Position numbers and translations under genes: made by a program. This document shows, piece after piece, positions 1,424 to 34,329 of a stretch of 64,000 nt of DNA. The number at the start of each line of letters is the position of its first letter. Within the stretch, counting starts at the first letter, position 1. Source of the DNA: Malacoraja senta (Eukaryota); contig CM075989.1 in assembly GCA_038087875.1 (NCBI GenBank), forward strand, positions 25,298,001-25,362,000. The letters run 5' to 3'. The notes beneath the pieces are model-generated. The model saw only the letters and a program-made list of their open reading frames with translations, did no database searches and was not told the DNA's origin.

Positions 1424-2789
1424 GAGGTAGAGATAGCGATGTACATTTCTGCAGCAGATGGCCCACAATCTTCATGGATACCAACCTGAATTGCCAGATG
1501 TGTAGGGTCATTTCCATTTAACTCATTTGTAGTTCCACACAAATCAAAAGTGTTTCCAAAATGTTAATATGGCATGTTGTCTCAACAATAACTGTGCACT
1601 GATCACGTCTACCAATGATGTCACGAGCAAAATGGATCAGCCACAGGAGGAGATGGTCAATTGGGTTTTTACTTCATGCTCAATCATTACTTAGCGCAGG
1701 TCTAGTTTACATCTTCAACATTTAGTACTGGACCAGCTTGTCAGAGGTGGTGTTTATAGAAGCAGTATGGAGGACATTCACCGTGGAAGAACACAGGATC
1801 CATTCAACAGCAAGTGAACAGAGGTGGTGGCAAATCAGAATTTCACCTCTGGTACATCCTGCCAATGGGACGGAACACACAGGAAATGTGATGGAGTTCA
1901 GAATATTGTCCAAGGCATAATTCCCTGGGTACAACCATGTCAGCCTCAACATGTCGACACCATTGTGCCCCGAAGTCAACATTGACATACCTCTCCCAAT
2001 GTCAATACCAAAACTTATATGTTAGAAAGGATGTCGTACACAGTTAACTGATTTAGAAGCACCTTGACATTTCCAAATTCTGTATGCAAGTCAATGCCAA
2101 GCAGTCAGTTCCATTTTACTGAGAGTATATGTGCAAAATGGCAAGTATATAGTGAGGGGTTGAGACAGAGGCTGGTAGGCAATAGGTGGAAGCCTGCTTA
2201 TTAATACCCCATGTCCTTATGAAACATTCATTCCCTCCACCACTAACAAAATAGCTGCGATAGATACTACCTGTCTAATCTGTTTACACCATTGTGGACA
2301 GCACAACAGATCAAAACCGTGATCTCTACCAAACTACGAGGAGCAGTTTTATGGGGACACACCACCTCCAAGTTTCACTCCAAACACACACCCACCACTC
2401 TATTATTGAGAGATCCAAATCCTGCAACTCACCTGATCAGTGCACAGTTAGAGACAGGGGCAATGAATGCGAGCTTTACCAGTGACAATCACATCCCCAA
2501 AGCATTATAAAGTTATATTCAAATGACACAAGTACTAACTCAATACCTGCTTAGTCAGCGACACAATTAATTAAGAACTGGCATTACTACGCAGCTCATT
2601 TACTGTTGACCAAAATTCCCACTGTCACATTGAATTACTCATCGCTCAAGTTGCATGATGATCAGGTTCAGTTTAGGATTCTACAAATCTCTTCCGGTAA
2701 TTAATGATCATTACTGCATTTAGTTTGTGTGTGTAAATACCTTTTAAATTACATATTGTAGTAGCTTAAATATTTAAAGAACTTTGCAG

Positions 2790-13419: not shown

Positions 13420-15980
13420 GGTCAGGAAACATGTTCCCGATGTTGGGGGAGTCCAGAACCAGGGGCCACAGTTTAAGAATAACGAGTAAGCCATTTAGAA
13501 CGGAGAGGAGTTAAAGAAAGGTAACTTTGAGGGTATGAGACGTGAATTGGCCAAGATTGACTGGCAATTAGTTCTAAAAGGGTTGACGGTGGATATGCAA
13601 TGGAAGGCATTTAAAGACTGCATGGATGAACTACAAAAATTGTTCATCGCAGTTTGGCAAAAGAATAAATCAGGGAAGGTAGTGCATCCGTGGATAACAA
13701 GGGAAATCAGGGATAGTATCAAAGCAAAAGATGATGCGTACAAATTAGCCAGAAAAAGCAGCATACCAGAGGACTGGGGGAAATTCAGAGACCAGCTGAG
13801 GAGGACAAAGGGCTTAATTAGGAAAGGGAAAATAAATTATGAAAGAAAACTGGCAGGGAACATAAAAACTGACTGCAAAAGGTTTTATAGGTATGTGAAG
13901 AGAAAGAGATTAGTTAAAACAAATGTAGGTCCCTTGCAGTCAGAAACAGGTGAATTGATCATGGGGAACAAGGATATGGCGGACCAATTGAATAACTACT
14001 TTGGTTCCGTCTTCACTAAGGAAGACATAAATAATCTGCCGGAAATAGCAGGGGGCCGCGGGTCAAAGGAGATGGAGGAACTGAGTGAAATCCAGGTTAG
14101 TCGGGAAGTGGTGTTGGGTAAATTGAATGGATTAAAGGCCGATAAATCACCAGGGCCAGATAGGCTGCATCCCAGAGTACTTAAGGAAGTAGCTCCAGAA
14201 ATAGTGGATGCATTAGTGATAATTTTTCAAAACTCTTTAGATTCTGGAGTAGTTCCTGAGGATTGGAGGGTAGCAAACGTAACCCCACTTTTTAAGAAGG
14301 GAGGGAGATTGAAAACAGGGAATTACAGACCAGTTAGTCTAACATCAGTAGTGGGGAAACTGCTAGAGTCAGTTATTAAAGATGGGATAGCAGCACATTT
14401 GGAAAGTGGTGAAATCATTGGACAAAGTCAGCATGGATTTACGAAAGGTATATCGTGTCTGCCGAATCTTATAGAATTTTTCGAGGATGTAACTAGTAGA
14501 GTGGATAGGGGAGAACCAGTGGATGTGTTGTATCTGGACTTTCAGAAGGCTTTCGACAAGGTACCACATAAGAGATTAGTATACAAACTTAAAGCACACG
14601 GTATTGGGGGTTCAGTATTGATGTGGATAGAGAACTGGCTGGCAAACAGGAAGCAAAGAGTAGGAGTAAACGGGTCCTTTTCACAATGGCAGGCAGTGAC
14701 TAGTGGGGTACCGCAAGGCTCAGTGCTGGGACCTCAGCTATTTACAATTTATATTAATGAGCTGGATGAGGGAATTGAAGGCAACATCTCCAAGTTTGCA
14801 GATGACACTAAGCTGGGGGGCAGTGTTAGCTGTGAGGAGGATGCTAGGAGACTGCAAGGTGACTTGGATAGGCTGGGTGAGTGGGCAAATGTTTGGCAGA
14901 TGCAGTATAATGTGGATAAATGTGAGGTTATCCACTTTGGTGGCAAAAACAGGAAAGCAGACTATTATCTAAATGGTGGCCGATTAGGAAATGGGGAGAT
15001 GCAGCGAGACCTGGGTGTCATGGTACACCAGTTATTGAAAGTAGGCATGCAGGTGCAGCAGGCAGTGAAGAAAGCGAATGGTATGTTAGCTTTCATAGCA
15101 AAAGGATTTGAGTATAGGAGCAGGGAGGTTCTACTGCAGTTGTACAGGGTCTTGGTGAGACCACACCTGGAGTATTGCGTACAGTTTTGGTCTCCAAATC
15201 TGAGGAAGGACATTATAGCCATAGAGGGAGTGCAGAGAAGGTTCACCAGACTGATTCCTGGGATGTCAGGACTTTCATAGGAAGAAAGACTGGATAGACT
15301 TGGCTTATACTCGCTAGAATTTAGGAGATTGAGAGGGGATCTTATAGAAACGTACAAAATTCTTATGGGGTTGGACAGGCTAGATGCAGGAAGATTGTTC
15401 CCGATGTTGGGGAAGTCCAGGACAAGGGGTCACAGCTTAAGGATAAGGGGGAAATCCTTAAAGACCGAGATGAGGAAAAACTTTTTCACACAGAGAGTGG
15501 TGAATCTCTGGAACTCTCTGCCACAGAGGGTAGTTGAGGCCAGTTCATTGGCTATATTTAAGAGCGAGTTAGATCTGGCCCTTGTGGCTAAAGGGATCAG
15601 GGGGTATGGAGTGAAGGCAGGTACGGGATACTGAGTTGGATGATCAGCCATGATCATATTGAATGGCGGTGCAGGCTCGAAGGGCCGAATGGCCTACTCC
15701 TGCACCTATTTTCTATGTATCTATGTATCCAGGAGGAAACACTTTTTCTCACAGAGAGTGGTGAGTCTGTGGAATTCTCTGCCTCAGAGGGTGGTGGAGG
15801 CAGGTTCTCTGGATGCTTTCAAGAGAGAGCTAGATAGGGCTCTTAAAAATAGCGGAGTCAGGGGATATGGGGAGAAGGCAGGAACGGGTACTGATTGGGG
15901 ATGATCAGCCATGATCACATTGAATGGCGGTGCTGGCTCGAAGGGCCGAATGGCCTACTCCTGCACCTATTGTCTATTGT
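13420..15980 (+). mobile_element. CR1 3' fragment acting as host, split by the younger CR1 insertion
   Basis: 13420-13510 continues collinearly at 15731-15980. Confidence 0.75.
13511..15730 (+). mobile_element. 5'-truncated CR1 LINE: RT ORF with one premature stop
   Basis: ORF 13535-15280 (NYRPVSLTS, YLDFQKAFDKV, GVPQGSVLGP, KFADDTKL); TAG at 15278-15280, same frame continues to 15634; (ctatgtat) tail; aggag duplicated at 13506-13510 and 15731-15735. Confidence 0.96.
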
Positions 15981-24625: not shown

Positions 24626-27600
24626 CTAATTATAATATTGAACAAATCAAGACTTACCTATCGGATTTGAACATGAACAATATTATCCCAAGGTTGCAGA
24701 GTATTTGAATGGCATTTACTGCATAATCCCTGAGGTTATTCTTGGTAAAGTGAAGGGCAAAGTTCATCTCTACAAGTTTCATTTTCTGAAGTTAATTTGT
24801 AGTTTATATTTACCATTTTGCCTTTGCTTATTTGGTTCCGCGATACAAGACTTACATTTAAAGATGAACAAAATATAAATTTAAAGACAGATATCAACTA
24901 ATTTCCCCGATTGACTGAATATCGATTTCTTTAACATCCCCTCTCTCTCCGTCCCTCCCCCACCCGACTACTACCTGGTACTAGCTGCAAAGTCGTCTTG
25001 TTGGGTCTCATTGTGTGATAAGGAACTGCAGATGCTGAAGAGACACACAAAATGCTGGAGCAACTCAGCGGGACAGGCAGCATCTCTGGAGAGAAGGAAT
25101 GGGTGACGTTTCGGGTCGAGACCGTTCTAAAGGTTTCAGGTCGAGACCCTTAGAAGAAACGTCACCCACTCCTTCTCTCCAGAGACGCTGCCTGATCCAT
25201 GCTGTTCACCAGGGCGAATTCAGCACAGAGACTAACGGTAGTGGCGCAACGCTTCCGACTGCCCGGGACTCTTGCACTGAGGCTGCTCCATGGCCGGAGC
25301 TGCAGCGAGCGACTCGCCAGCCTGGCAAACACTTGCCAGCCCCGGCTTCCCATCTTCATCTGCCCCCGCCGCTGCTTCTGCTCCCGGCTCTTCAACACCC
25401 GCGGTCCATGCAGCTGATATGAGTTTTGAAATTCTCGTTGATCACAGAATTTCTCACGACAGAGCGTGAGAAATTTGTGATCAGCGTGAGAATTTGTCAA
25501 AATGCGTGAGTCTCACGCTCAAAGCGTGAGAGTTGGCAGCCCTGCAATACCTGACTGATGAATGCAAGCATGCCAGACCCCATCTATATTTCATGAGAAG
25601 AAAGATGGCATATGTTGCATTTTTCACTTGTAAATTTTGATCGAATTATAACCTGAAAATATACCCTATGATTTTTATACAAGAAGCTAATTATGCTAAC
25701 CATCTGCAGCTGAAGGCTCAGCTGCTTTACAGTTGGTTGGTGTAGTTACAAGTTACCCTGTATGGCAATATTCTGCAAACATATCAAAGTGAACGCAAAA
25801 ATATATACTACAGATAATAGAAATCGGATACAAAACAGGAAATCCTGGAAACACTCAGCAAGTTAAGCAAGTATCTGTGGGAAGCTAACATACTCATAAC
25901 AATCCTGGTCTCACTCCTCCACATAGTCCCTTTGTCCTTTCCATTTACCCCTTTATTTCGTCTTTACAGCAATTAAAACCAACTTGTTTATTTTCCTCTT
26001 TCCAAGTTCTAATGAAGGGTCTTTGACTTGAAACATAACTCACTCTTAACAGCAACCAAGAATCCATCAACAGTGTATTTAAACAGTGCGTACTGAACAT
26101 TTTAAACCATATTCAATTATTTATTCATATTTGTCCCTATGTCACCAGTCATATGTTCACAAACCATGAAATCATTTACCAATTGAGCCTATGCTAGTTC
26201 TTTAGTGTAAACCCAAATTAATCTTCTAATCCGATATCTCTCTTCAAATATGTATCCAATTTATCATGATTTCTGCAGCTAACACTCCCTATGGGCCACT
26301 ACGATAAAGCATTCTGTGACCTTATCTTTTTCAATGTGAACATATCACCACCAATTTACCACTATATTCTTCTTCGATCATCTTCAGCCTCTATTTTTAC
26401 AACAAAATGAAAGAAACAACTCTCAGTTTATCCTTTCAAAACATAATGTCATTCTGAAAACCACCAATCTGCTGGAGGGTGAATGTGGGTGGTTACAGTC
26501 TGCTGCACAGATACAGAAAGAAACACATCTACAGAAATAAACATAACTAGGATAGGAAGACTCAGATCTGCAGATTCCAACACATACTAATCCACACACA
26601 CACACATCCGAAGAAGGATCCCAACTCAAAATGCTGTCTATTCTTCCCTCCAGAAGCTACCCGAGCTGCTGAGTTACTCTGTCCGGGCTGCATTCTGATG
26701 CAGGCAGTGGAAGGTGAAGGGGACGGTCTGCAAACTTACATTCCACACCCTCAGAAAATACTGTCGTTCCGTGGTGGGCTCGGCAGGTGGGACAAGGCAA
26801 CCTCAGCATAGGGAAGTGGAGGGGCAGTTGCTGGCAGTGGCAGTCACAGGTTGTGGTGCTGGTGGAGGTGGCTGCAGGAGGCCCGAGAGCAGCCAGGCAA
26901 AGATCATACCTTTCAGAAACTTGGAAGGTGCATTAATTCCGGAAGAATTAATTTCTTACTCGCTGCAGCTTTACAGGCACATTAGATGCAACTGCAGTAA
27001 ATATATAATAAATTACCAGTTATTTTAAGTAAACCAGAAAATGATAGTGCAAAAAAACCCCAAAGTATATAGAGCAACCATAGTAGTGCAAAGTCGATAA
27101 TGGTTTGGTGCTGAGGTAGGGATGTGCAGGGCAGTTCGAGAACCTGATGATTGATTAGAAGCAATAAAGGTTCTCAGGCTTCCTGACAGTAAACACAAGA
27201 GGAGAGCATGACGAGAGTGACTGGGTCTTTGTTGACCCCGACAGTAAACACAAGAGGAGAGCATGACGAGTGACTGGGTTTTTGTTGACACTTGCTGTCT
27301 TGAGGCAGTGCTTCCTATAGATCTCTTTGACAGTGGGGTGCAGAGGGAGCATTGAGCTTGTCAGCATCAAGCTGGACAATGATATGTCGCTGTTACTTGA
27401 ACCTCTCCGTTTCACTGTACTAGCAGGAACTATGCTGACCGTACTACATGTATTGGGGTCGGGATCCCAGGGAGAAGATCTGCACGGATTTAGGCAAACA
27501 GATGCACACAAACAAACACAAAACCGACAGAAATACATTTCAGCCTGTCCCCACCCATGCTGCCTGGCCTGAGTGCATACACTATTTCAGCCTGTCCCAC

Positions 27601-28860
27601 TGATTACATACACTATTTCAGTCCGTCCCCACTCACGCTATCTGGCCTACTGAGTGTTCCAGCATGATACTGTTTCATTGCAGAAACGCACCCAGGTCAA
27701 TTTGTAAATATACACATGGATTCACACATTCTTACAAGCACACAAATCAAACAGAAACCTTCATTGCCACAGAAACACACTCAATAATGTACAGAAATAC
27801 ATACAGAAATTACTAGTGGCAAATTCAAACACATTCTTGGATCTTCAGAATCATGCATGCACAAAGATTAACACAAATATACGCATGTATTTCATGAATA
27901 TTCAAAGACACCCATGAGTGGAGTCTTTACCGGTGCATGCATATGTACATATAGATACGCACACGCACACACACGGGTTTACAGGGGAAAAAACCCATGT
28001 ACAAATTTCTACCGAAGCATGCAATAAATTCACAAAATTTACATAGATTTCAAGAAACACCATGTCACAGTTTACAGAAATGTTCAGGTAGATACAGAGA
28101 TATTGATATGGATCTGCAGAAAGGTAAAACATTCACCAATCTAAGGATATACAGAATCTACGAATACACTCAAAAGTACTGAAACTCCAATTTGTGAAAG
28201 CTAACTGACAGATTTGTGGAAACTGGACAGCTCTCTCCAAAAATACACACAAATCTACAAAAACTGGCACGCTCTGATCTTTATAAATCCTCACATATTA
28301 AACTGTTTGCACAAATCTGCAGACACACACAGAGAACCACTGAAGATTACATTCAGAATCGCACCTGCACACAAAAGTAGAGAAATACCGAAATATCCAG
28401 TCAATTCTTCACAAGTACTTACCCATTGAAGCCAACAACAGACATCTACAGAATCACAACTACTCAAATGTCCATGTCAAACCTTCCCCACACACCAGGA
28501 TTTGCAGAAATATGTATACACAAGGATTAAAAGAAACAGAAACTTACACACAAATGTACAAACAGTCTCCCTTGGGCCCATCATAAAATCTATAGAAACG
28601 CACCCACAAAAACTGACAGAATTGGATACACAAATATGCAGAATGATACTCAAACTGAGTAATAAAGAGGTACAACACAGGAACAGGCTCTACTGCCCAG
28701 CAAATCAGAGCCATCTATCATCCCCCTATCTACTCTGATCATACATTTGTCCACAAACATGTCAACAGTTTCCTTCAAATTTACAGAGTTACATCCTCAC
28801 AGAAATACTAAAACTAAAGAACAACATCCCCAAATCCCCAAAAAAACACTTTCACCAAAG

Positions 28861-29775
28861 TTAAGCAATAAGCCAGTTCGGTATTCCGAAAACAGCAAGG
28901 ATTCATGGGATTTGTCAAAGGTCTTTCACCATAAAGAAAAGCGAACGAAGCGTTGGCTGAAGAAACTGTATATAAATTCTTATGTTTATTCAAAATATCT
29001 TTAATCTGAGGAACAGGGGTGCCGTGTGGTCACATTATAGGAAAGTTAATGTATTCCAGACTGGAACACAACGATGATAGTTTCTGAGTCAAACTATTCT
29101 GCTAATACGAATGAGCAATGAAATTCTCGATTCCAGAAAGGCTCCCTTAAATGGTCAACTCCTCATCCCTCCCAAACGAACAGGGTAGCGGGAGAGGGGG
29201 GTGTAATAGCAAGAGAGAGGGGGCAGATGCGAGTGCGAGACAGGGGAGATCGCTCACACAGACCTGCGCCTCATCCGCAGGCAGGATCGAACCCGGGTCC
29301 CCGGCGCCGCGGGTGCTGTCGAAAGCCGAGCACCAGCCTTCAAAGGGGAAACACACAAAGCGCTGCAGCATGTTAGCTGCCTCTGTCTCACGCCGGCTGC
29401 AAGCCCGGCCCGACACCTCTGGCCACCCCCGGGCAGGGACGAGACACTCGGGAGGGGACGGGAACAGCCCAGCAGCAACTCAACAGCGCCCACAGCGCCA
29501 GAGCTCCGGGCCCGACCCCGACCACGGACGAGCACGATCTCGCTCATTCGCCAAAGCATAAAGCAATAAAAACGACAAAATAATCTTAGTTTTTAACAAA
29601 GGAACAATAAATACGTAGTTTGAAAGCAGTATTTTCTTACCTAGAAGAATCAAACCTGGAAAAAAAGGAAGAAATGAAGGTGTATATGTACACAGCTCCA
29701 CTGCTTTCCAGCAATGTTTATGCATAGTGACCTTTGACCCGGACATGCGCAGTCGGAATACCGAACTCGCTTATT
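28861..29775. mobile_element. About 0.9 kb element bounded by 23-bp inverted repeats
   Basis: aataagccagttcggtattccga (28867-28889) vs tcggaataccgaactcgcttatt (29753-29775), 22/23 complementary; CpG-rich interior. Confidence 0.6.
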
Positions 29776-30264
29776 CTAGAGACTATTTAACGAAAGCACA
29801 CATGCACAAATCATTGCGCAGAAATAATTCTATAGAAATATCCACATGGATTGAAAGAAATGTGCACACCAGACTACAGAAATCTACACAAAGCTGCAGA
29901 AACATGTGCAAGTGTTCATGGAATGATATTCACACATCTATAAATAGCTCTCTTATCTACAAAAAAAACGAATTGTCTACAAAAATACATGTATCTGCAC
30001 AAACTTCATTTTTACATAAGCATAAAGACATGCACAGGTAGATAGGACAATTAAAAAACAAACATATGCAGATATACGCACACAAATCAAGTTTTTTCGC
30101 AGATATCCATAGCCAACTGTAGAAAATATACTTAACATAACTACTAATTAAACATTTGGAATCTGAAACATAGTTAATGGTTTTAATCATCAGCTAAAAC
30201 AAAATAAATGTATTTATGTTGGTATCAAAACCAAAGATTTAATAAGATGTTTTAATGCCACTAC

Positions 30265-30330
30265 CCACGCCCATTTTCAGAGATCCTCACTGGCAATGCC
30301 ATTTACAGGGATAACATCATTCATAGCTGT
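30265..30330 (-). promoter_or_regulatory. SECIS element (form 2) in the SELENOS 3' UTR
   Basis: Sense AUGAU-GUUAUCCCUGU-AAA-UGGC(AUU)GCCA-GUGAGGAUCUC-UGAA: AUGA/GA quartet, 11-nt helix II with wobbles and mismatches, unpaired AAA and mini-stem; about 205 nt after the UGA; ATTAAA at 30251-30256 follows. Confidence 0.88.
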
Positions 30331-30484
30331 CAATTCATATAACGTTTCACATGAGTAAACACTGCTCTTTACATTAAAAAGTGAATGATAAAATTTATGT
30401 CTAACAGAAAATTGAAACTAGCTGTAACAGAATAAAATGATTGAAATTGACAAGCTAGGGAGCAGGGTAGACAGTGTCCAAAGA

Positions 30485-30515
30485 TGGCCAGTGGCTCTGG
30501 TAACGCCACTGACCA
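30485..30515 (-). promoter_or_regulatory. Proximal stem-loop 4 nt after the SELENOS stop codon
   Basis: Sense UGGUCAGUGGC-GUUACCAGA-GCCACUGGCCA: 11-bp stem (one G-U), 9-nt loop. Confidence 0.8.
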
Positions 30516-30519
30516 CACT

Positions 30520-30605
30520 CTAACCTCACGATCCAGAAGAAGGCCCTCTGTGACCTGGTCTCCACAAACACGAACCACTGCCATCACCCGTCAGGGGATT
30601 AAAAC
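30520..30605 (-). CDS. SELENOS: Selenoprotein S exon 6 with selenocysteine codon (TGA 30526-30528) and TAG stop
   Basis: [32 protein letters not shown]; penultimate Sec with a Cys 14 residues upstream, as in the SELENOS family; total CDS 525 nt. Confidence 0.96.
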
Positions 30606-30887
30606 CTGAAAGACCAACAGCAAAATACTGTAACATTTCAAAGAACATGCAGCAGTCAGAAAATCACACTTTGTGACATGGGGTACGGTAGCACATTGGG
30701 TACCTAAGTGGATGAGTACCAGAGGTTTTGTTAGTTTACAGATACCCTATACGGTCACAGGGAGAATGTACAACTCTGTGCAGACAGTCAAGTTCGAACC
30801 CGGGTCTCTGGTATTGTAAGGCAGCAACTCTACCGCTGCATCACCGTGCCACCCCACCCAAGGTCTGATACATCAATACAAGCTTAA

Positions 30888-31113
30888 AGGGCCTGTCCCA
30901 CTTTCACGACCTAATTCACGACCTTTTTTACTCGTGGACATTTTTCATCATGCTAGAAAAGCGCCCTGACCTACTTGATGCCATGAGTACCTACGACTAA
31001 CATCACGGCCTGCTACGACCTACCTACGACCTCCTACGACCAGGCTGCGAGTACGAGTCAAGGGCAAACTCAGCAGAGGTCGTGCATTAGGTTGTGAAAG
31101 TGGGACAGGCCCT
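30888..31113. mobile_element. PIF/Harbinger-type MITE in SELENOS intron 5
   Basis: About 35-bp TIRs agggcctgtcccactttcac.../...gtgaaagtgggacaggccct with TAA on both sides; internal (ctacgac) repeats. Related copy at about 23279-23434. Confidence 0.85.
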
Positions 31114-32958
31114 TAAATCACACCATGTTAGCAGGGCAAGTTAAATGCAAGAAATTAAATCAATCTGAAGTTAAAATAGTCTCATTAATGCTAACAATTA
31201 AATGATGGGATTGTTGTAAAAATGCACTGGACCACAAATGTCCTCCCTCACTCTATCTAGGATGTATGGAGCTTATGAACAAGGCGGCCAATTATCAAAT
31301 GATGTCTCAATTCAGAGATATTTAGAAATGATCAATGTGCCACCACTGGCACTGTCACATTCAGTGAAAGAATAAAAAAAACAAAGTCTTACACCACAGA
31401 TGTCTGTTTGTGAGGTGTGTGTGTGTCTCTTTACTGGAGTTCTGAGATTACATGTGAAGACAGGTATAATACAGGGAGACATCACCGCCATCCAAATGTC
31501 CCTCAGCTAGTGAATCTGTACTCCCTCAAGGTCAATGTATATGGAAGTATTATTGAGCGCAGCAGGGTGACTACATATACACAAGGTGGTGAACATTATC
31601 TGATACATCCACAGCAGGAGAACAGACCATGTTATCCACAGGAGGTGCAACCTCAAAAGGACCGACACCACCCAGCAATGCTCTCATTTCACTCCAACAT
31701 CGGGAAGGCATGGGAGTCGAAAACCGTGACCATCAGGTTAAAGAATAGTTTCTTCCCAACAACCATCAGCCTCTTCAACACTAACCGATGGACTATCTTT
31801 GGTTGCACAAAGGACTTGGGCATTTTCTTTATTAATTGATTGAAGTTGTGTCCATTATATATTATTTATATGTATTGTGTTACAGGCCTGTTATGCTGCA
31901 GCAAAAAATAATTGAATTGTTCCATTTTTGTGTACATATGGCAATTAAACACTAGACCAAACTCTGGACCGCAGGAGAATTGCTTCTGAAAAGAAGATAA
32001 ATTGAATCCCAAGGCTTGCAACCTGCACTAACTTCCAGAATTAGTGAAAGGCATCACACATGCAGATTCAAGAAAGTTCATGGAAGTTGGGAAGGAGGGG
32101 AGGTAAAAATGAGTGACCCCACAGGTGAGCTTCTGAGTATCAACTGATTCGGCTTTCCAAAGTACTACAGGGATTAAAGATTAACAAAATAAATAACTGG
32201 GTATTTTAACTGCAGAAATGTTGCTATTAAATGTGTACAAAAAAAAGTATAGAGAATAAAAATACAAGGCTTCTTGGATTAAAGTTAGTCATACAGCACA
32301 GAAAAGGGCCCTTCTGCCCATCTTACCCATGCCGACCAAGATGCCTCCGCTACACTAGGCCCATCTGGTCATGTTTGGCCCATATCCCTCGAAGCCTTCC
32401 CCATCCATGTACATTCAAAAGTCTTTTAAATGTTGATATAGTACCTGCCTCAATTACCTCCTCTGGCAGCTTGTTCCACATACCCACCACCCTATGTGAA
32501 AACGTTGCCTGTCAGTTTCCTCTCTCCCCTTAAACATCTGCCCCCTGGATCTTGATTCCCTAGTCTGGGCAAAAAAGTCCTTGCATTCTTTGTGCATCTG
32601 AGAAACTTAGAATTTAGAAGTTCTACTAAATGCACTATGATGTTGCTAGTACCTGTTAAACTACTGCAGGAGGCAGAGAAATTGTGCTTCAATCAGTCAT
32701 AGCATAATCAAGGTGACCCAGGTTATCAACTCAGGTCATAGATGAACTCCTAAGGTCCGTTGAAGTGATAATACTACTAATACTCTGGAGCTATTAATCA
32801 ACTCTGCCACAACCTAAGACGGATATCCTGGCAATATTTGTTCGAAACAGAGAACAAAATGCAGGTTTAAAGTATTCAATGTCCATGTAAACACGGTTGC
32901 TGTTCCCCTGAACACTTGACTCCACACCAGTGAGTACTTGGTGATTAGGAGCACTCAC

Positions 32959-33022
32959 CTCCTCTCAAGGGCTTCTTGTCAGATTTGGATTTTGTTGGTC
33001 TTGGTGTGTTGGATTCTGGCTC
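32959..33022 (-). CDS. SELENOS: Selenoprotein S exon 5
   Basis: EPESNTPRPTKSKSDKKPLRG(G); 64 nt; acceptor tttcag, donor GAG|GTGAGT. Confidence 0.94.
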
Positions 33023-33139
33023 CTGAAATCAAACAATGATAAAAACAACCAATTAGCCCTATCCCGTCTCAAAAACATGAACATTATACATTAACGATAT
33101 CTCAATTGTAAATAACTAAACATAACAAGATCATGTTAC

Positions 33140-33229
33140 AGGATCCGTGATTGTTTTCTTCCGGGTGCTCTTTCCTTGTTGCAAATTTTCCCAGGCTTGG
33201 ATTTTCTCCCTTCTTTTCTCTTCTTCAAT
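33140..33229 (-). CDS. SELENOS: Selenoprotein S exon 4
   Basis: IEEEKRREKIQAWENLQQGKSTRKKTITDP; 90 nt; acceptor aatgcag, donor CCT|GTAACA. Confidence 0.92.
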
Positions 33230-33834
33230 CTGCATTAAAGAAAACAACAAGGTCAAATAGCCACCGCCCCAGAGCCAAATCTGCAAAACCCCAGTGCACA
33301 GCTTGAACCAATGAGTCTTATTCAGTCTTCCAGTAACAAATTAGCCCAATGCTACACACATCCACTTGTTCATTTACCATTACTTGTTAGCTCTAAATCT
33401 TAGTTTTCTTCTTCAAAAAATCTACCACATCAGAATTATCCAAATTAAATTACATCTTCCATGTTCCTAACATCTCAGCATTCCACTAAACAAATCCCAT
33501 TCTCAGTTCTCCCTGCAGTTAGCTAACCTTCTGGGATGATACATTGTACAGACCAAGACGCCTCCACCGACTTCTGACTCTAAACTCACAGCCCTTCATA
33601 TTATTCCTTTTATACATGCTTGACTAAATGCCTTCCGAATCTATTCCCAGCCTTTGACAAAGTATATTTAAAATGACAATTTTTAAATCCTTGTTTTCCC
33701 CGGCTTACAATTCCCACGCCTGTGAAACACGTAATGCGTGCATTTTCAGGTCATGCTGCATGTACTGATGTTCAGATCTGTTTGCACGAGCTTTCATTTT
33801 ACCATCAGGACCAAATGATTTGATGCGTCCTTAC

Positions 33835-33941
33835 TTCTTTCTGTTTCTCTTTGTATTTTGCTGCTTGGGCATCCAGTTCTTGCTGCATGCGATGGCGAGC
33901 AGCATCCATTGCTTCCTGCCGCCTCACAATTAATGATGGTT
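33835..33941 (-). CDS. SELENOS: Selenoprotein S exon 3 (VCP/p97-interacting coiled coil)
   Basis: (E)PSLIVRRQEAMDAARHRMQQELDAQAAKYKEKQKE; 107 nt; AG and GTAAGG boundaries. Confidence 0.96.
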
Positions 33942-34329
33942 CTGGACACAAGAAGAATACATTAATACATTTAAAGAAGCTCCAACTTTGAGCAAAATAG
34001 ATTTTACCTTTGTGGGAAGAATCACCGTTATGCATAGGAATAGTTCATATCCGATATTATGAAATAATGATCAAATAATTCTTATGAATGCAGAACTAAG
34101 ACAAATCTTAATAAATTGACCAGAGAGAAGACTACATTTCTGTCCAAAGACAATGATTTACTGAGTTTTCTGCTACATCTAGAGGGTGGGTTGTCCACAA
34201 TGTGAAACTAACCAACTACCATCAAATCACAATTGAAGTCCAATGGCATTAAAGAGTCAGTCAGCATCTCAGGAGAAAAAGGATTGGGGGCGTTTCAGGT
34301 TGGGAGCCGTCTACAAACTATTTTTTTCC

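Follow-up and report, generated by a model that had tools for sequence, protein, structure and literature searches.

Introduction

The proximal part of the SELENOS 3' UTR is known to hold a stem-loop, termed SL1 or PSL, which in human spans UTR nucleotides 3-36 (PMC3628699, PMC6844570). According to the study of Bubenik (2013; PMC3628699), SL1 has been conserved across 36 species (chicken, zebra finch, Xenopus and Ciona among them), with compensatory changes, a splice donor is sequestered within it, and a variant lacking the SECIS had been found in primates only as of 2013; the species table of that study is without cartilaginous or bony fishes. In human the SECIS-less variant amounts to 5-16% of transcripts (PMC3628699) and is also mentioned elsewhere (PMC5553675), and primate SELENOS variant 1 (NM_203472) is supported by ESTs and qRT-PCR (PMC3628699, PMC3316567).

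The function of the stem was taken up by Cockman (2019; PMC6844570). There, deletion of the PSL from human native-position cDNA constructs brought no gain in Sec insertion, and a linear sequence could substitute for the PSL in a V5 assay. The positive effect of 2013 had been obtained with a 60-nt deletion that also cut the SPUR element (PMC3628699, PMC6844570), a mammal-conserved element at UTR nt 55-91 (PMC6844570). The same paper proposes that the PSL is retained to prevent a SECIS-removing splice, leaves open the reason for the conservation of the SELENOS proximal stem, and reports a similar stem in six of eight human selenoproteins with C-terminal Sec, those of TR1 and SelK being without a splice site (PMC6844570). 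Among the papers listed by searches outside subscription journals, none treated SL1/PSL in cartilaginous or bony fishes.

The SELENOS locus of a skate

The window analysed here is a stretch of 64,000 nt from Malacoraja senta (GCA_038087875.1, contig CM075989.1, 25,298,001 to 25,362,000), numbered from its first letter. SELENOS lies in it on the minus strand, its six exons encoding 172 amino acids followed by Sec and Gly:

39792-39759, 34930-34787, 33941-33835, 33229-33140 and 33022-32959, minus strand: SELENOS exons 1-5 (joints among exons 3-6 present in related RNA)
30520-30605, minus strand: SELENOS exon 6, coding part (PF06936, E 1e-9; joint with exon 5 spliced in 4 of 4 RNA runs)

Three of the four SELENOS exons tested matched PF06936 (Pfam), and exon 2 shows 94% identity to a protein that clusters with the SELENOS of Amblyraja, Leucoraja and Rhinoraja. 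Exon 6 ends in Ser, Sec (UGA, 30528-30526), Gly (GGU) and the stop codon UAG (30522-30520). The gene is flanked by an exon with a Fringe/CHGN domain and by a first exon with an LRR_9 domain, which we take to belong to CHSY1 and SNRPA1, respectively. Just upstream of the CHSY1-like exon lies a stop-free frame of 593 aa (13499-15280, plus strand) in which motifs like those of LINE reverse transcriptases were recognized by eye, and intron 5 holds a MITE-like element (30884-31117) with inverted arms of 41 nt and very high RNA contig depth. No tRNA genes were found.

A post-stop hairpin with a donor-like site predicted to be buried

30484-30516, minus strand: proximal stem-loop, SL1/PSL orthologue (folding z -4.28; orthologous hairpins in other loci)
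30508-30516, minus strand, GT at 30513-30512: donor-like GTG/GTCAGT in the 5' arm of the hairpin (10.8 kcal/mol predicted for its opening; no use seen)

The initial annotation had described an 11-bp hairpin 4 nt past UGA-GGU-UAG with GUG/GUCAGU in its 5' arm, and all of these coordinates were confirmed. The helix (30515-30485) has 11 bp, including one G-U, a 9-nt loop and a 4-nt spacer after UAG, and the MFE fold adds a twelfth pair, a G-U at 30516-30484; in UTR numbering the hairpin starts at nt 4-5 and the donor GU stands at nt 7. Its energy is -21.9 kcal/mol (z -4.28), equally stable folds occurring in 0 of 200 shuffles, and the minus strand of the 64 kb holds 12 hairpins of the same class (11 bp, at most one G-U, loop of 3-15 nt). 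A search with Rfam gave no matches at gathering thresholds and only chance-level ones in 29000-30700, the SECIS also being left uncalled.

As a donor, GTG/GTCAGT is moderate (5.6 bits by an approximate matrix), and 251 of the 4028 GT sites on the minus strand score at least as high, that is, 3.9 per kb or a chance of about 7.5% per 20 nt. The score falls within the range of SELENOS's own donors, four of the five having been scored with the same approximate matrix (5.3, 1.6, 7.5 and 1.6 bits). The predicted cost of opening the in-stem donor, 10.8 kcal/mol, compares with 3.6 and 7.0 kcal/mol for two real SELENOS donors. A further motif, GAG/GTTAGA (30527-30519, minus strand), spans the Sec, Gly and stop codons; with 6.1 bits it is no weaker than the candidate donor, its predicted accessibility is greater than that of the in-stem site (3.2 kcal/mol), and no use of it was seen in related RNA.

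Orthologous hairpins and compensatory pairs

A metagenome scan yielded 19 loci, four of which are SELENOS by translated context (L004, L011, L013 and L014). The other 15 were dropped as GC-rich chance matches, as was one viral match (L020), and no matches were found among the prokaryote genomes scanned for the element. L004 is a teleost locus, its protein being identical to that of lumpfish; L011 appears teleost-like by its similarity to L004, and we judge L013 to be bird-like and L014 invertebrate-like. A hairpin is present within the first 50 nt of the UTR in all five loci, the window and these four (z -3.1, -3.7, -2.7, -2.0 and -4.8), so that the hairpin sought in other fishes was indeed met with in the teleosts L004 and L011. 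That of the bird-like locus is weak, 7 of 200 shuffles being as stable. The invertebrate-like locus carries a strong post-stop hairpin (2548-2582, plus strand; z -4.8) together with a type II SECIS, and its stem is without a donor-like site.

The 5' arm contains GUCAG in three of the five loci (skate, L004 and L011), L013 and L014 being without the donor. Human has GUUAG in the same register, as read from published primers (PMC3628699, PMC6844570), and the donor GU stands at UTR nt 7 in skate, nt 6 in L004 and L011, and nt 8 in human (from the primer). A donor-like motif at a similar position in human, mentioned in the initial annotation, is borne out, with one register shared by skate, two teleosts and human. 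Pairs +1 to +7 were registered on GUCAG by a script, because MAFFT misaligned the 3' arms, and the human pairs were read by eye from the loop-deletion primer. Pair +6 is U-A in skate, C-G and A-U in the teleosts and U-A in human; at pair +3 the three fishes have C-G where human has U-A; pair +2 is U-G or U-A, and pair +5 G-C or G-U. Since position +6 shows three different pairs, the structure is supported, the compensatory pairs coming from four sequences in register (skate, two teleosts and human).

Between skate and teleost, 6 of 7 positions are conserved in the hairpin 5' arm and 7 of 10 in the SECIS helix II arm. As the two arms are about equally conserved, passive inheritance in a slowly changing stem suffices to account for the motif. 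Against a donor under selection stand this comparable conservation of the SECIS arm, the two of five loci without a donor and the drift of +6 away from U in both teleosts.

The SECIS, the downstream acceptor and a 909-bp insertion

30265-30332 (outer limits approximate), minus strand: type II SECIS (core AUGA at 30320, AAA bulge, mini-helix, 3' GA near 30278)
30182-30256, minus strand: three ATTAAA hexamers (30256, 30243 and 30187), possible proximal poly(A) signals (contigs of 3 of 4 RNA runs continue past them)
29641-29680, minus strand: pyrimidine tract, AG (29657-29656) and 15-nt candidate micro-exon (29655-29641), inside the insertion; use not seen
28867-29775, no strand assigned: 909-bp CpG-rich segment with imperfect inverted repeats at both ends (recognized by repeat arms, composition and depth spikes)

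The SECIS has the type II layout and can be aligned with the four orthologous SECIS elements; the coordinates confirm that it lies, like the ATTAAA hexamers, downstream of the hairpin. The acceptor at 29656 lies downstream of the SECIS and within the transcribed region, being crossed unspliced in three RNA assemblies (X1, X5 and X6, introduced below). It is strong by a crude pyrimidine score, 4 of 4231 AGs scoring as high; four of the five true SELENOS acceptors were scored in this crude way and gave 15, 13, 12 and 13. Its strength and position, and the 858 nt that splicing from 30513 would excise, agree with what had been annotated. At 29640, 15 nt past the acceptor, follows a strong donor, TAG/GTAAGA (9.6 bits by the approximate matrix). 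This donor and the repeat-bounded segment around both sites are additions to the initial annotation.

The 909-bp segment is bounded by arms of 23 nt at 96% identity, with a second pair of 22 nt at 77%. Its GC content is 50%, with 55 CpG per kb, and TGTG occurs 8.8 times per kb inside it versus 31-36 on both flanks. Both of its end bins draw extra RNA contig depth, reaching 870-895 at 29740 in X4 and X5. In its terminal inverted repeats, its altered composition and the indications that its ends occur in multiple copies, the segment resembles a non-autonomous DNA transposon, and it is likely to be one, inserted in a TG-rich tract. The insertion is likely to be multi-copy and would also be present in the three related organisms. 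One of its ends may resemble Crypton-type termini, and its arm pattern found no matches among viral contigs. By blastn the acceptor had no counterpart in any of the four orthologous loci, distant UTRs rarely aligning and L004 having a UTR of only 511 nt. Since the acceptor sits inside a repeat-like insertion, an ancestral role for it is unlikely.

The TG-rich degenerate tract itself (30119-29790 and 28850-27650, minus strand) contains TGTA.AT 12 times versus 1.7 expected under a first-order Markov model, 0 of 500 simulations reaching 12. These motifs resemble what we take to be Pumilio sites, only one of them matching fully, and their excess could be due to an expanded repeat.

Transcripts of related species

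Four contig assemblies (X1, X4, X5 and X6) from three related organisms, with about 96-97% identity to the window, were mapped on 27650-34300. None of the listed runs is labelled as RNA, which says nothing on expression; the four were treated as RNA, since SELENOS introns are missing from their contigs and each assembly has exon 4-5 and 5-6 joints with GT-AG ends. Over the donor (30514-30512) and the SECIS the main contig is continuous in every assembly, and it extends to 29710 (X1), 29710 (X4), 29744 (X5) and 30120 (X6). In X1, X5 and X6, listed contigs with 20-35% of the depth of the main contig bridge the acceptor at 29656 without splicing, and a joint of 30514 to 29655 is absent among the 15 joints listed of 41, as seen in contigs, from which rare forms are dropped. 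Contig assembly loses rare isoforms, and a form as frequent as the human one (5-16%) could have been pruned. In these relatives the main SELENOS transcript is unspliced at the donor and contains the SECIS. The proposal that the junction from 30513 to 29655 is in use, and with it that of a switch between Sec-containing and truncated protein, hence found no support in the RNA contigs of the related species.

Farther downstream, X1, X4 and X5 contain contigs of 3.5-3.9 kb, which define another feature:

About 25400-29228 (lower end estimated from contig size), no strand assigned: downstream transcribed tract

Its depth is 30-47% of that of the SELENOS main contig in the related species, and it is likely to be a long 3' UTR read-through. 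The donor at 29640 is crossed unspliced by one X6 contig (record 24), and no joint from 29640 is among those listed. RNA contigs of two organisms end or start exactly at 29625 and 29568, a graph branch near the acceptor; the ends at 29625 were rejected as a sign of the junction, which predicts 29627, and most likely stem from paralogous copies of the inserted segment. Those at 29744 and 29710 were likewise not accepted as poly(A) sites, as they match k-1 overlaps with the repeated end of the element.

The C-terminus of a truncated product

When mammalian SELENOS is terminated at UGA, its C-terminus is di-Gly, and the protein is cleared by CRL2-KLHDC2 (PMC12035522, PMC8013793). Proteins truncated at UGA would end in Gly-Ala in 13 of 13 elasmobranch proteins (three clusters) and in Gly-Ser in the window (30534-30526, minus strand), versus Gly-Gly in 6 of 6 proteins of the teleost cluster and di-Gly also in L013 and L014. 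Judged by sequence, truncated elasmobranch SELENOS would thus be without the di-Gly KLHDC2 degron. Gly-Ser as a degron mimic binds KLHDC2 more weakly (PMC12035522; autoinhibition is treated in PMC11470957 as well), and Ala-ending peptides can still drive degradation (PMC8013793). The effect of a Gly-Ala or Gly-Ser end on stability could accordingly go either way.

Discussion

We hypothesize that the hairpin is a standing lock that keeps the donor-like GUCAG paired, the terminal exon unspliced and the SECIS in the message, a reading that we hold to be, on balance, probable. The SL1/PSL stem would fold in cells and pair the moderate donor, the paired stem would block the binding of U1, and the terminal exon would as a consequence remain unspliced. 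The acceptor at 29656 would have been carried into a long read-through 3' UTR by the inserted repeat, and would not be the partner of an ancestral switch. This proposal draws on the position matching SL1, the compensatory pairs, the opening cost of 10.8 kcal/mol, the unspliced RNA of the relatives and the human PSL results, use of the donor upon opening of the stem being hypothetical. Since the hairpin occurs without the donor in the bird-like and invertebrate-like loci, locking cannot be the only role of the stem.

These two loci also favour the explanation next in likelihood, in itself somewhat doubtful, that the stem was selected for translation, through ribosome pausing or spacing beside UGA-GGU-UAG, with GUCAG as a neutral passenger in a slow helix. 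The hairpin in five of five loci, the comparable conservation of the SECIS helix and the stems without splice site of TR1 and SelK, among the six of eight similar stems in human (PMC6844570), are all consistent with it, whereas the lack of a gain in Sec insertion upon PSL deletion, the substitution by a linear sequence in the V5 assay and the loss of SPUR in the deletion of 2013 (PMC3628699, PMC6844570) argue against it. Least likely of the roles considered for the stem, and quite improbable, is a structure-gated switch, in which the open stem would let 30513 splice to 29655, perhaps via the 15-nt micro-exon, to give a minor SECIS-less mRNA and a Sec-less protein. Such a form has its precedent in the human variant, at 5-16% of transcripts, albeit one found in primates only as of 2013 (PMC3628699), and GUYAG is retained in three lineages. 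The acceptor, moreover, ranks among the four strongest of 4231 AGs and precedes a donor of 9.6 bits, and transcription reaches it at 20-35% of main-contig depth (X1, X5 and X6). The junctions would fall 12 and 27 nt past UGA, inside the NMD-escape zone of 50 nt. Yet a retained branch would end a contig at 30512, and the main contig is unbroken there in all four assemblies; X5 shows almost the same depth over the acceptor (37.7) as past it (37.9); the junction is missing among the 15 joints listed of 41, contigs ending at 29625 and not at the predicted 29627; and the acceptor belongs to a repeat-like insertion with no match in four orthologous loci.

The pyrimidine tract, the 15-nt exon and the strong donor might instead be parts of an independent transcript initiated within the insertion, the RNA of 3.5-3.9 kb being that transcript, an idea compatible with the lock explanation for the hairpin and in itself improbable. 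The insertion is CpG-rich, depth climbs from the element (0.15-0.35 of the main contig) to the far tract (0.30-0.47), and SELENOS exons and the far tract never occur together on one contig. On the other hand, contigs cover most of the way from the UTR into the element, the donor at 29640 is crossed unspliced by the X6 contig and has no joint among those listed, and a GC bias could account for the dip in depth. A more speculative view, which we think very unlikely, is that GUYAG in SL1 is a latent U1 site shut since the jawed-vertebrate ancestor, for which lineages recruit acceptors of their own, an exon in primates and a transposon-borne micro-exon in skate; a rare NMD-escaping SECIS-less mRNA of the skate, whose product would end in Gly-Ala or Gly-Ser without the di-Gly degron, could then persist Sec-free. 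If the skate junction existed, it would mean that a splice removing the SECIS had been recruited convergently, and would open a way to a Sec-free isoform that might be stable.

The lock remains our preferred reading. Of the hairpin/donor module tentatively ascribed to the jawed-vertebrate ancestor, the hairpin is probably older, being present in the invertebrate-like locus, and Ciona being part of the 2013 alignment (PMC3628699); the donor register holds for skate, two teleosts and human and is absent in the bird-like locus.

Comparison with known systems

The SELENON SRE is alike in being a stem-loop a few nucleotides 3' of a Sec UGA (PMC3628699). It is coding and begins 6 nt past UGA, whereas the skate stem lies in the UTR, 10 nt past UGA, and the human PSL, set against the SRE, is dispensable for recoding at its native position (PMC6844570). 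Primate variant 1 and the skate candidate share a donor 12-13 nt past UGA and a predicted outcome, a stop at UGA. The primate variant is documented in RNA, whereas in the contigs of skate relatives the splice was not seen; the acceptor of the skate candidate, moreover, belongs to a repeat-like insertion, and another donor follows it after 15 nt.

The closest counterpart is human SL1/PSL itself, which has in common with the skate hairpin the gene, the place after Sec-Gly-stop, GU-YAG in the 5' arm, in a register that agrees to within 1-2 nt, and a downstream SECIS of type II. They differ in size, the human stem having 14 bp and a 6-nt loop (PMC6844570) and the skate stem 11-12 bp and a 9-nt loop, and in the distance to the SECIS, whose core lies 200 nt into the skate UTR, the human element being farther away and starting after nt 335 (PMC6844570). 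The homology to the mammalian stem-loop suggested by the initial annotation is borne out by position, fold and compensatory pairs: the skate hairpin is the orthologue of SELENOS SL1/PSL, and the idea of structure gating has already been published for primates. What is new is the GUYAG register recurring, with compensatory pairs, in skate, two teleosts and human. The donor-bearing stem in a cartilaginous fish and two teleosts is a modest extension of the range described for SL1/PSL, and provides non-mammalian test cases for splice blocking.
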